A stretch of 32,170 nucleotides of DNA, taken from assembly GCA_023130215.1 (NCBI GenBank), contig JAGMAN010000030.1:1-32170 (forward strand), read 5' to 3'. The position numbers were made by a program, and so were the translations under genes. How positions within the stretch are numbered: the stretch's first letter is position 1; each line of letters opens with the position of its first letter. Shown here in pieces: positions 13,779-14,963 of the stretch. The DNA is from a bacterium (GTDB taxonomy: Bacteria > NPL-UPA2 > JAGMAN01). The notes beneath the pieces were generated by a model. It did no database searches and was not told where the DNA came from. It saw nothing but the letters and a program-made list of their open reading frames with translations.

Positions 13779-14963
13779 GTGACTTTGAAAATAGTGATTG
13801 TGGCTGGGGGGACGGGAGGGCATCTATTCCCTGGCTTGGTCATAGCTGAGAAGCTGAAGCAGGGGGAAGTAGGATGCGCCATTACCTTCATCGGGAGGAG
13901 GAGAGGTTTGGAAGCCGAGACTGTGCCCAGGGAAGGATTTGCATATCTTAATATATTGGGCGAGGGATGGTTGGGGAAATCTCCGGGAAGGCTTCTTTCA
14001 TCTGTGATAAAGACCCTCTTGGGATTTTTCCAATCTATCTATATCTTGTTAAGGCTTCGGCCGAATGTCGTCGTGGGAATGGGGGGATATCTATCCGGAC
14101 CATTCGTCTTGGCAGCCTCTCTCCTTGCCAGGCTGTCACGAAACCCGTTCCAGCCAAGGCGGCACTTTCACGGCGTCCTATTTCACACCTTGATCCATGA
14201 GCAAAACCTGATGCCGGGTATTACCAATCGCATCCTGAGCAGGTTTGTTAATGAAGTCAATGTAAGTTTTGCTGAGTCAATGCCGTTTTTCCCAAATGGA
14301 AAAGCAGTCTTTACCGGCAATCCTGTTCGCGGTGAAATCGTCCGGAGTCAAAAAAGGAAGAGTGAAAGTGCAAAGACGATATTAGTAATGGGAGGAAGTC
14401 GAGGGGCACATCGGATAAATGTATCTATGTTGGAGGCGGTTAATTACTTGACACGTAAGAGTGCTGCCTTTAGGGCTGTCCGCAGGACGTCCTTTAGGGC
14501 TGCAAGCGAAGAAAAGGTGGGGTCTTATAGTGTAATTCACTTAAGCGGCAGGGAAGATTATCAACTTGTGGTGGAGACCTATAAAAAGGCTGGGGTAGAA
14601 GCAGTGGTCTATCCATTCCTTCACCGGATGGAAGAGGCATACAGTCAGGCTGACCTGGTCATCTGCCGGGCTGGTGCCACTACCTTAGCTGAAGTTACTG
14701 CCTGTGGGCTGCCGGCTATTCTTATCCCTTACCCATGGGCTACCCACCATCATCAGGAGCAAAATGCCCGCTGGCTGGAAGGCAGTGGGGCAGCAGTGAT
14801 AATAGAGGACTGGGAGTTAACCGGGGAGTGCTTAGCCGGGGCCATTTTGAACTTATTGGCCGAGGAGGGGAAACTCTCCCGGATGGCTGAGAACAGCCGT
14901 CGGTTAGGTAGACCGAAAGCGGCTGAAAAAGTGGTGGAGAGAATCCTGCGCCTGGCAAGTTAG
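13779..14963 (+). CDS. murG: UDP-GlcNAc:lipid I GlcNAc transferase MurG (carries two in-frame insertions)
   Basis: GTG start. GT28 hallmarks are AGGTGGHLFPG, GMGGYLSGP, HEQN and CRAGATTLAEV..GLPAILIPYP. It is 394 aa; E. coli MurG is about 355 aa. Confidence 0.9.
   Translation: MTLKIVIVAGGTGGHLFPGLVIAEKLKQGEVGCAITFIGRRRGLEAETVPREGFAYLNILGEGWLGKSPGRLLSSVIKTLLGFFQSIYILLRLRPNVVVGMGGYLSGPFVLAASLLARLSRNPFQPRRHFHGVLFHTLIHEQNLMPGITNRILSRFVNEVNVSFAESMPFFPNGKAVFTGNPVRGEIVRSQKRKSESAKTILVMGGSRGAHRINVSMLEAVNYLTRKSAAFRAVRRTSFRAASEEKVGSYSVIHLSGREDYQLVVETYKKAGVEAVVYPFLHRMEEAYSQADLVICRAGATTLAEVTACGLPAILIPYPWATHHHQEQNARWLEGSGAAVIIEDWELTGECLAGAILNLLAEEGKLSRMAENSRRLGRPKAAEKVVERILRLAS
14130..14183 (+). other. 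In-frame 54-nt (18-aa, RLSRNPFQPRRHFHGVLF) extra segment in MurG just before the HEQN motif
   Basis: By-eye alignment with E. coli MurG (..LAAWSLGIPVVLHEQN) against ..LAASLLA[RLSRNPFQPRRHFHGVLF]HTLIHEQN. The boundaries are approximate. Confidence 0.6.
14451..14510 (+). repeat. 60-nt dispersed repeat, copy A (in frame inside murG, encodes TRKSAAFRAVRRTSFRAASE)
   Basis: ACACGTAAGAGTGCTGCCTTTAGGGCTGTCCGCAGGACGTCCTTTAGGGCTGCAAGCGAA. It is nearly identical to 17267..17326 and 23330..23389. It contains the 12-mer CCTTTAGGGCTG twice and the palindrome GGACGTCC. Confidence 0.95.

Follow-up and report, generated by a model that had tools for sequence, protein, structure and literature searches.

The window analysed here, 32,170 nt of contig JAGMAN010000030.1 from a bacterium of the NPL-UPA2 lineage (assembly GCA_023130215.1), contains four copies of a short repeated element, located inside murG and rpoD, at the end of ftsQ and in an intergenic spacer. 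The comparison with relatives shows that copies were pasted into unrelated places at different times: the murG copy is present in the window species and in the relative L001 (ENA ERZ24794676, 85% DNA identity, 6.4 kb), the rpoD copy in the window species only, and a further copy, in murB, in L001 only. The element probably represents a lineage-specific family of ultra-short, non-autonomous insertion elements, which would be translated through where they interrupt genes. A second relative, L004 (GCA_030605915.1, 13.2 kb), is also considered below. By RpoD, the closest named relative is 'candidate division NPL-UPA2 bacterium' (73% identity over the N-terminal part), and the reported genome of this candidate phylum is ~1 Mb (PMC6305446).

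Copies and architecture of the element

Three 60-mers were read directly at 14451-14510, 17267-17326 and 23330-23389, with 91-92% identity to the reference copy, and repeat grouping placed 14451-14514, 17267-17330 and 23330-23393 in one family at the same 91-92% identity. The 24-mer ACACGTAAGAGTGCTGCAAGCGAA, at 29647-29670 (-), equals copy A less its internal 36 nt, and the repeat search of the window returned a perfect inverted match between 14448-14467 and 29654-29673. These repeats had been proposed in an initial annotation made from the sequence alone; direct reading, the repeat search and Pfam agree with it on their places, sense orientation and host genes. In the shuffling controls, the 12-mer CCTTTAGGGCTG (at most one mismatch) occurred six times against 0.34 expected, and the 24-mer (at most three mismatches) once against 0.00 expected. 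A chance origin of the repeat is excluded.

Table 1. Coordinates of the element copies, of their host genes and of related inserts (positions in the window unless another sequence is named; a caret marks an insertion point)
Feature	Position (strand)	Location or basis	Remark
Copy A, 57-nt long form	14452..14508 (+)	within Lys AAA codon of murG	CACGTAAGAGTGCTG + 36-nt hairpin core + CAAGCG
36-nt core of copy A	14467..14502 (+)		two 12-mers CCTTTAGGGCTG around TCCGCAGGACGT
Copy B, 57-nt long form	17268..17324 (+)	intergenic	lies between GT4 glycosyltransferase stop (17263-17265) and GH130 ATG (17337)
Copy C, 57-nt long form	23331..23387 (+)	last sense codon of ftsQ	1 nt before ftsA ATG
Copy D, 21-nt short form	29649..29669 (-)	Lys codon of rpoD	CACGTAAGAGTGCTGCAAGCG
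Empty murB site	20923..20924 (+)	GAGGA^AAAGG	filled in L001 (48-nt short form, L001 5141-5188)
murG, host of copy A	13779..14963 (+)	Pfam	
ftsQ, host of copy C	22541..23392 (+)	Pfam	
rpoD, host of copy D	28336..30090 (-)	Pfam	
Second family, 24 nt, in-frame	21153-21176	murB	absent in L001
Second family, 29 nt	L002 1556-1584	murG 5' end	empty at ~13793 of the window; upstream GTG start rescues the gene
Second family, 84 nt (28 aa), in-frame	L003 8250-8333	ftsQ; also protein P0242	empty between 23220 and 23221 of the window, in L013 and in L016

The long form of 57 nt consists of a 15-nt 5' arm, CACGT(AA/CC)GAGTGCTG, the 36-nt core and a 6-nt 3' arm, CAAGCG; in the short form of 21 nt, both arms are joined and the core is gone. 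The tetranucleotide GCTG occurs three times in the element, with spacings of 12 and 24 nt, and GCTG direct repeats flank the core. The copies fall into two subtypes, as first annotated, with GTAAGAG in copies A and D and GTCCGAG in copies B and C. The element has no terminal inverted repeats: the 5' end CACGTAAG matches the reverse complement of the 3' end CGCTTGCA at 3 of 8 positions, and no terminal inverted pair was reported by the repeat search of the window.

All four copies are in sense with local transcription, copy D being on the DNA strand opposite to the others. The three coding copies use one common frame, reading TR(K/P)SAAFRAV(R/H)RTSFR(A/T)ASE, and four of the six frames are open, in agreement with the first description. 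Copy A, with the split Lys codon, reads TRKSAAFRAVRRTSFRAASE (MurG residues 225-244), a net gain of 19 residues; in RpoD, copy D gives TRKSAASE in place of the K of the relatives; and FtsQ gains from copy C a tail of 20 residues, TRPSAAFRAVHRTSFRTASE, with the ATGA stop/start overlap with ftsA preserved. The 3' junction of copy B creates a GGAGG 8 nt upstream of the GH130 ATG.

ENA scaffold_74 of ERZ23499063 (sample SAMN18200503) matches the window at 100% identity, at about record positions 16343-48512. Nothing but the short-read metagenome origin of this scaffold speaks for an artefact of assembly, adaptors or chimerism. Five samples yielded assemblies that again contain copy C (L003 and L013-L017, from ENA scaffolds and Logan contigs), with an additional single-nucleotide polymorphism (SNP) in one of these; copy D was found again in L003, L005 and L013-L016; copy B in L020; and the MurG bearing copy A is present on three contigs. 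These assemblies come from two pipelines and carry independent SNPs, and a diverged orthologous copy occurs in murG of another species, L001. An artefact is excluded; the initial annotation had argued against one from the substitutions between copies. Short-read contigs do fragment at the copies: L002, a conspecific contig of a metagenome-assembled genome (GCA_023128955.1, 98% identity), terminates 14 nt short of copy A; the N-gap of scaffold L003 falls exactly inside copy B; and Logan contig L021 stops 38 nt into copy B.

Filled and empty sites among relatives

In murG, L001 has a 54-nt variant at the identical site, with ACACGT duplicated (+6) and one CCTTTAGGGCTG 12-mer deleted (-12). The 44 other MurG proteins aligned (42-65% identity) have no insert and read L-K-xK, two of them with unrelated indels in the same loop. 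The 8-residue segment of RpoD is confined to the window species (the window and protein P0122); all ten RpoD relatives (33-77% identity) are without it and read IL-K-GG. In L004, whose RpoD N-terminal part is 77% identical to that of the window species, the site is empty at the DNA level, ATATTAA^AAGGAGGG versus TTGA[CACGTAAGAGTGCTGCAAGCG]AAGGAGGG in the window. The nearest FtsQ homologues end in ...VVKLR-stop or ...VVKIHRK-stop, 1-3 residues past the start of the window tail. The reverse situation is found in murB, where the window is empty and L001 is filled: its insert of 48 nt, CACGTCTTACACGTCTTACGAGTGCTGCAAGCGCGAGTGCTGCAAGCG, keeps the frame and is a short-form copy containing internal tandem duplications. 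For the rpoD and murB copies, the alignments of orthologues reveal the presence/absence pattern expected of a selfish, RPE-like insertion element, and the homologous peptides in distant relatives that would have contradicted the initial annotation were not seen in MurG, RpoD or FtsQ. On these sequence comparisons, the segments are lineage-specific additions that entered different lineages at different times.

Because the empty sites of the relatives fix the boundaries, the inserted DNA measures 57 or 21 nt. The insert ends are CACGT...GCAAGCG, placed in a purine-rich tract with an A directly to the left and AA directly to the right (GA for the intergenic copy). The repeat first delimited as a 60-mer (and a 24-mer) is real, with boundaries off by 1 and 2 nt: its first A and its last AA or GA belong to the target, so the 'A/G' polymorphism at position 59 lies in the flank and not in the element. 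In the host sequences that the initial annotation restored by excision, a Lys had been left out; the correct readings are NYL-K-EKVG, KIL-K-GGPK and VKL-K-stop. The targets before insertion are TTGA^AAGAAAAGG in murG, TT(G/A)A^AAGGAGGG in rpoD, CTTA^AATGAAAAA in ftsQ, AGAA^GAGGAAC at the intergenic copy and AGGA^AAAGGTAG in murB of L001. The left flanks (TTGA, TTGA, CTTA, AGAA and AGGA) agree throughout in their final A only. The comparison of filled and empty sites at rpoD and murB detected no duplicated base.

These junctions could also be explained without mobility, if ectopic gene conversion or the templated repair of breaks, using A-rich microhomologies, had recopied one donor several times, for the most part in the region of the division and cell wall (dcw) cluster. 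The copies have no target duplication, inverted repeat or transposase, their junctions share just 1-2 nt (A...AA) with the ends of the earlier 60-mer, and they cluster within 15 kb, the dcw cluster being concerned in both species. We consider this account unlikely, since the five independent events have the identical end points CACGT...GCAAGCG, which random filler would not reproduce. In addition, the rpoD event is on the other strand, 6 kb past the cluster, events took place in two species after their split, and a second family of mini-inserts, described below, behaves alike.

Translation of the inserts

Every known variant of the element differs by a multiple of three. The L001 murB copy is the only one in another codon phase, its insertion point following the second base of a GAA codon, and is read as TSYTSYECCKRECCKR; the 5' arm of this short form reads ...ACG TCT TAC GAG TGC TGC AAG CG..., which is open, and the long form would give TAA/TAG there. 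These frame-keeping changes point to translation of the inserts.

In the AlphaFold model of the window MurG (alignment of 46 sequences; mean predicted local distance difference test, pLDDT, 92.5; predicted template modelling score, pTM, 0.91), the only blocks of low confidence are residues 121-130 and 231-250, which correspond to two insertions. The element peptide, residues 225-244, is modelled as an extension of the helix 211-235, followed by coil before the strand 250-255. In RpoD, the site lies between region 1.2 (84-112) and region 2 (343-413), in the non-conserved region. The inserts would occupy tolerant sites, namely a helix end or loop in the MurG model, the sigma-70 non-conserved region and the last codon of FtsQ, and this fits tolerated passengers that the ribosome may simply read through.

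A benefit to the host from the peptide itself is very unlikely. The basic and partly helical module SAAFRAVRRTSFRAAS (pI 12) might serve, for example, for membrane or nucleic-acid contact in cell-envelope proteins; it is strongly basic, it is read in one frame in three coding copies, and the modelled MurG helix is prolonged through residues 225-235. Against such a role, one copy is intergenic, RpoD carries eight residues only, L001 murB uses a different frame for its copy (TSYTSYECCKRECCKR), most differences between the orthologous murG copies change the amino acid (R to H, S to P), and the pLDDT over the segment is low.

It is still less probable that the insert is absent from the protein, through ribosome hopping as at the T4 gene 60 gap and the mitochondrial byps, or through RNA removal. 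Some 50 nt with a hairpin in an essential gene do resemble mobile bypass elements (bioRxiv 10.1101/2022.08.31.505936). Here, on the other hand, the used frame has neither stop nor frameshift and the variants stay multiples of three, direct reading of the junctions revealed no take-off codon matched by a landing codon, and two copies without hairpin still interrupt essential genes. An intein or intron was likewise rejected, by size and by the frame-preserving variants.

The core hairpin

The hairpin of the core is imperfect, with bulges, and relies on G-U (G-T) pairs. In RNA folding, the sense strand reached -23 to -30 kcal/mol (z -1.9 to -3.7) and the antisense strand -14.5 kcal/mol (z +0.2); in DNA folding, the values were about -10 and -6 kcal/mol, respectively, with z of -1.3 to -1.7. 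The hairpin is missing in copy D and was destroyed in the murG copy of L001, so it is unnecessary for the persistence of a copy. The search of Rfam, with the whole window at the gathering threshold and with copy B at E<=10, returned no meaningful family, and a scan for terminators and promoters predicted neither at the copies.

A host-retained, cis-acting RNA hairpin (which might, for example, stabilise the mRNA, mark a processing site or modulate translational coupling), rather than a selfish element, would account for the sense orientation of all copies and for a fold that is stable only in the sense RNA. Two of the four copies stand at cistron junctions (GT4-GH130 and ftsQ-ftsA), and the orthologous murG copies are better conserved than four-fold sites. 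We regard this function as quite unlikely, given that the rpoD copy has no hairpin and that the half-deleted one of L001 murG folds no better than shuffles. Moreover, a substitution in copy C disrupts a G-C pair, no Rfam family matches, the lack of a T-run means that the hairpin is not a terminator, and two copies are in the middle of coding sequences. A solitary CRISPR repeat, which the 36-nt core and a Cas6 gene in L004 had brought to mind, was rejected, as an array and a spacer structure are lacking and functional copies occur from which the core has been deleted.

Taken together, the RNA hairpin, templated repair, the peptide module and bypass are all less well supported than a mini insertion element.

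Proposed mechanism

For the mini insertion element, a simple sequence of steps can be proposed. A copy enters a purine-rich target; the ribosome would read straight through it, and the insertion would survive only where the frame is kept, the phase is without a stop and the protein region is tolerant. The long form would then be shortened to the short and intermediate forms when slippage occurs from one GCTG direct repeat to another across the hairpin. As the internal period is 12, the deletions of 36 nt (rpoD) and 12 nt (L001 murG) are multiples of three.

How the copies move is a more speculative matter. Mobilisation in trans, by an enzyme encoded elsewhere that acts on the single-stranded hairpin, such as an HUH transposase of the IS200/IS605 type or of the type of the transposases associated with repetitive extragenic palindromic (REP) sequences (RAYT), may be suggested by analogy and is rather improbable. 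The lack of duplication and of inverted repeats, the strand-asymmetric hairpin and the insertion oriented by a short target are reminiscent of HUH/Y1 single-strand transposition. A wider proposal, doubtful as well though somewhat less so, is that of a still-active class of mobile DNA with a minimal unit of 21 nt, inserted precisely at A^AA without duplication, preferentially or exclusively in transcribed DNA and in sense, perhaps by way of an intermediate that is RNA or single-stranded, with the help of an enzyme so far unconnected with transposition. Essential proteins of a streamlined uncultured bacterium would then steadily gain short peptides from this class, joined by one sibling family, (T/C)ACGGTGAAACA..., or more.

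Orientation, distribution and points against mobility

The five independent insertions are all in sense, which has a one-sided chance of 1/32. Purine-rich motifs, the preferred kind of target, are enriched about 3:1 on the coding strand here (for example AAAGRA, 57 sense versus 19 antisense), and T[GT]AAA[GT] begins in the phase that gives the observed frame in 28 of 54 cases. Target preference and purifying selection can account for most of the agreement in strand and frame. The chance of 1/36 initially calculated for this agreement is consequently a weak argument: the shared frame of the window copies is real, with targets about 3:1 in sense and about half of them in the observed phase, and the figure alone does not demonstrate a frame-aware mechanism, the L001 murB copy being in a different phase. 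The GC skew tracks gene orientation and is no guide to whether replication starts or ends between copies C and D.

A profile of the copies was run with nhmmer on 62.8 kb of DNA of the lineage. It recovered four copies in the window, all between 14.4 and 29.7 kb, and two in the 6.4 kb of L001.

Several observations weigh against the proposal of a mobile family. With the same profile, the initial 14 kb of the window, the 9.9 kb lying left of it (L006) and the 13.2 kb of L004 gave no copy. Just four copies are known in this genome, of which ~42 kb are readable, and two in L001, all of them in or near the dcw cluster; the description of the repeat as dispersed holds for four copies in 15 kb, and none was found in the other ~27 kb of the genome that are readable (the rest of the window and the 9.9 kb on its left) or in 13 kb of L004. 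Exact scans with two core patterns of the GTDB species-representative genomes and the JGI metagenomes returned nothing, and neither did those of the IMG/VR viral contigs, for which the second core pattern was used alongside a short-form one. These empty scans are likely due to the species not being a representative and to short-read assemblies breaking at the repeat. A composite peptide query (four open frames, 98 aa) searched against 5.8 billion proteins gave an FtsQ fragment only (E=1.5), by a method of poor sensitivity at 20 residues, which diverged or short copies escape.

The window encodes neither a transposase, of the Y1 type or another, nor a RAYT or a reverse transcriptase, and no HUH/Y1 enzyme was seen in the ~42 kb of readable genome. 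The target is loose and the single hairpin dispensable; the left flanks have no common strict target of 4-5 nt such as IS200/IS605 elements require; the hairpin is weak as single-stranded DNA (z -1.3 to -1.7) and was lost in the murG copy of L001 (z +1.0). Copy D is on the opposite strand, so that a replication-strand bias would need a terminus between the copies.

The conservation of the murG copy is also unexpected for a freely drifting passenger peptide. Between the window and L001, 3 of the 48 aligned positions of the orthologous copies differ, two of the three being non-synonymous (R to H, S to P), and 23% of the four-fold degenerate sites differ (141/607; P=0.002 for the comparison). This suggests constraint on the sequence, homogenisation between copies or recurrent insertion at a hot spot, with too few sites to choose among them.

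Other small inserts and the genomic neighbourhood

The comparison of strains revealed a second family of mini-inserts with the core (T/C)ACGGTGAAACA, whose members are included in Table 1. The 84-nt insert of ftsQ bears a GTGAAAC/GTTTCAC inverted repeat. These inserts are polymorphic between genomes that are 98-99% identical, and therefore small inserts are still being gained or lost. A palindrome, AGGCAGTACTGCCT, is found at 15043-15056, in the spacer between murG and GH130, and its GGCAGTACTG is common with the CAGGCAGTACTGG of the 84-nt insert; it may be a further fragment of the second family at the boundary of a cassette.

This cassette of 4.3 kb (GH130, GT4 glycosyltransferase, GH130 and GH130; ~14959-19267) is located between murG and murC and houses copy B. 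In L001, murC comes directly after murG, with no cassette.

The other low-confidence block of the MurG model reflects a second, seemingly unrelated 51-nt in-frame insert at 14130-14180 (residues ~117-134), ARLSRNPFQPRRHFHGVL, with pI 12 and low pLDDT. It is present in the window species only (the window and L002) and absent in L001 and the 44 other MurG proteins; its reverse complement is weakly like the 5' half of the main element (p ~0.01). Relative to L001, the window has also specific inserts of 27 nt (12622-12648, murD/ftsW), 12 nt (13759-13770, ftsW/murG) and 22 nt (21554-21575, murB/ddl), and no repeat partner was found for these three junction inserts.

Local repeats were noticed in three other genes. 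In dnaG, at 30561, there is a 15-nt in-frame indel that is polymorphic between strains, L003 and L014 having an additional GCCTGCTCCGAAGGA that looks like a local tandem duplication. In ddl, 21948-21982 is a perfect (AAGGAT)x5.8, encoding a KDKDKD run and 24 nt longer than in L001; in murC, 19927-19955 is a perfect (GAAAAAC)x4.1, giving GKNEKRKTKNV versus MKSEKRKAKSI in L001. Contig L020 terminates at window position 19877, and the gap of L003 spans 19878-20003, including the murC repeat.

In L004, a Cas6 gene (PF10040; 1807-2760, next to yqeY) and a neighbour of 559 aa stand beside the yqeY-NIF3-dnaG-rpoD block, and past rpoD this relative has HicAB and folate-pathway genes where the window has the dcw cluster. 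The public gene call for FtsZ is 383 aa, and the protein as delimited here is 394 aa and was not found on record in that form.

Significance

To our knowledge, high-frequency in-frame colonisation of essential genes by repeats has been documented essentially for the Rickettsia palindromic elements (RPE) alone, and we know of no explanation for how these spread, 25 years on. The element described here would be an independent case in a distant, free-living candidate lineage, 2-6 times smaller than the Rickettsia elements, and in-frame colonisation of essential genes would then not be peculiar to one intracellular genus. Its junctions are known to the nucleotide (A^AA, with neither duplication nor inverted repeats), and there are clean filled/empty pairs and a polymorphic sibling family. 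With such pairs and a family that varies among strains, a search of complete genomes could make it possible to deduce the enzymology.

For annotation and phylogenomics, the MurG, FtsQ, RpoD and MurB proteins of this lineage bear segments of 7-28 residues that are probably parasitic in origin rather than functional. The copies also fragment short-read assemblies of genomes of the lineage. The importance of the element would rise sharply if genome-wide data revealed many copies or a new mechanism of insertion.

Comparison with known systems

Like miniature inverted-repeat transposable elements (MITE), the element is short, has no transposase coding and occurs in several copies (four in the window, two in L001). 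Intragenic MITE, such as QMITE1/2 of Coxiella (PMC5896051) and the ERIC, BOX and RUP fusions (PMC3184786), are occasionally fused in-frame with host open reading frames, and their 3' extensions resemble the FtsQ tail. They are at least 100 bp long, with terminal inverted repeats and target duplications, and in-frame fusion is a minority outcome; the element differs in these respects and, without inverted repeats or duplication, is not a MITE.

The 50-nt gap of T4 gene 60 and its homologues are mobile hairpin inserts of ~50 nt, stop-containing and skipped by the ribosome (bioRxiv 10.1101/2022.08.31.505936). The bypass inserts of T4 gene 60 and the mitochondrial byps share with the element a hairpin and the fact that the essential genes remain functional. 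Unlike them, the element is open in the used frame and evolves by multiples of three.

Elements of the IS200/IS605 type and their miniature derivatives (PATEs) make no target duplication, have no terminal inverted repeats, depend on hairpins and insert in an orientation set by a short target. They carry a hairpin near each end, use a strict target of 4-5 nt at the left flank and measure at least ~100 nt. The element is similar in having neither duplication nor inverted repeats, and differs by a single central hairpin, dispensable in the short form, and by the loose A^AA target.

In size, the closest known system is that of the small dispersed repeats (SDR) of Nostocaceae. SDR are reportedly 21-27 nt long, with mobility inferred from orthologous filled and empty sites, and some are said to have hairpins; they have reportedly been found in Nostocaceae only, often with HIP1 or tandem repeats. 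We know of no enzyme that mobilises SDR and of no description of them as in-frame additions to essential proteins. The SDR are those of Elhai et al. (2008, Genome Res 18:1484), as cited in PMC3116915 and PMC5861425.

The 36-nt core is an imperfect palindrome in the range of ~20-40 nt of REP sequences, and the element shares with REP and REPIN the ~35-nt size class, an imperfect hairpin unequal between strands and the lack of an own transposase (PMC3116915, PMC3184786). REP and REPIN are thought to move as single-stranded hairpins, and in this the element may be likened to them (PMC3116915, PMC3184786). REP sequences, on the other hand, are extragenic, with a 5' motif of the GTAG type, usually arranged in inverted pairs and co-occurring with a RAYT gene (PMC3116915, PMC3184786). 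Three of the four window copies are intragenic, the copies are single units, there is no GTAG beside the hairpin, and no RAYT was found in the available DNA. Being intragenic in most copies, the element is not a REP.

The closest behaviour is that of the RPE (Ogata et al. 2000, 2002, summarised in PMC10969869 and PMC3184786), to which the initial annotation had compared the repeat. In the summary of PMC3184786, RPE are ~105-146 bp long, palindromic over their length, present in tens of copies and given for Rickettsia only. The element measures 57 or 21 nt, only its central 36 nt pair, and its host is a relative of NPL-UPA2. By size, structure and host it is set apart and is not a member of the RPE, sequence homology to which is not expected with such a host; the likeness is functional. 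According to the same summaries (PMC10969869, PMC3184786), RPE are short dispersed repeats without an own transposase, intergenic and in-frame in unrelated housekeeping genes, which contribute a conserved peptide where the protein fold permits it and form several families per small genome. The element is similar in these traits, with in-frame copies in murG, ftsQ, rpoD and L001 murB and one intergenic copy. The view of an RPE-like selfish element is thus sustained by the predicted pattern of presence and absence and by the in-frame behaviour, as a functional resemblance outside the RPE family.

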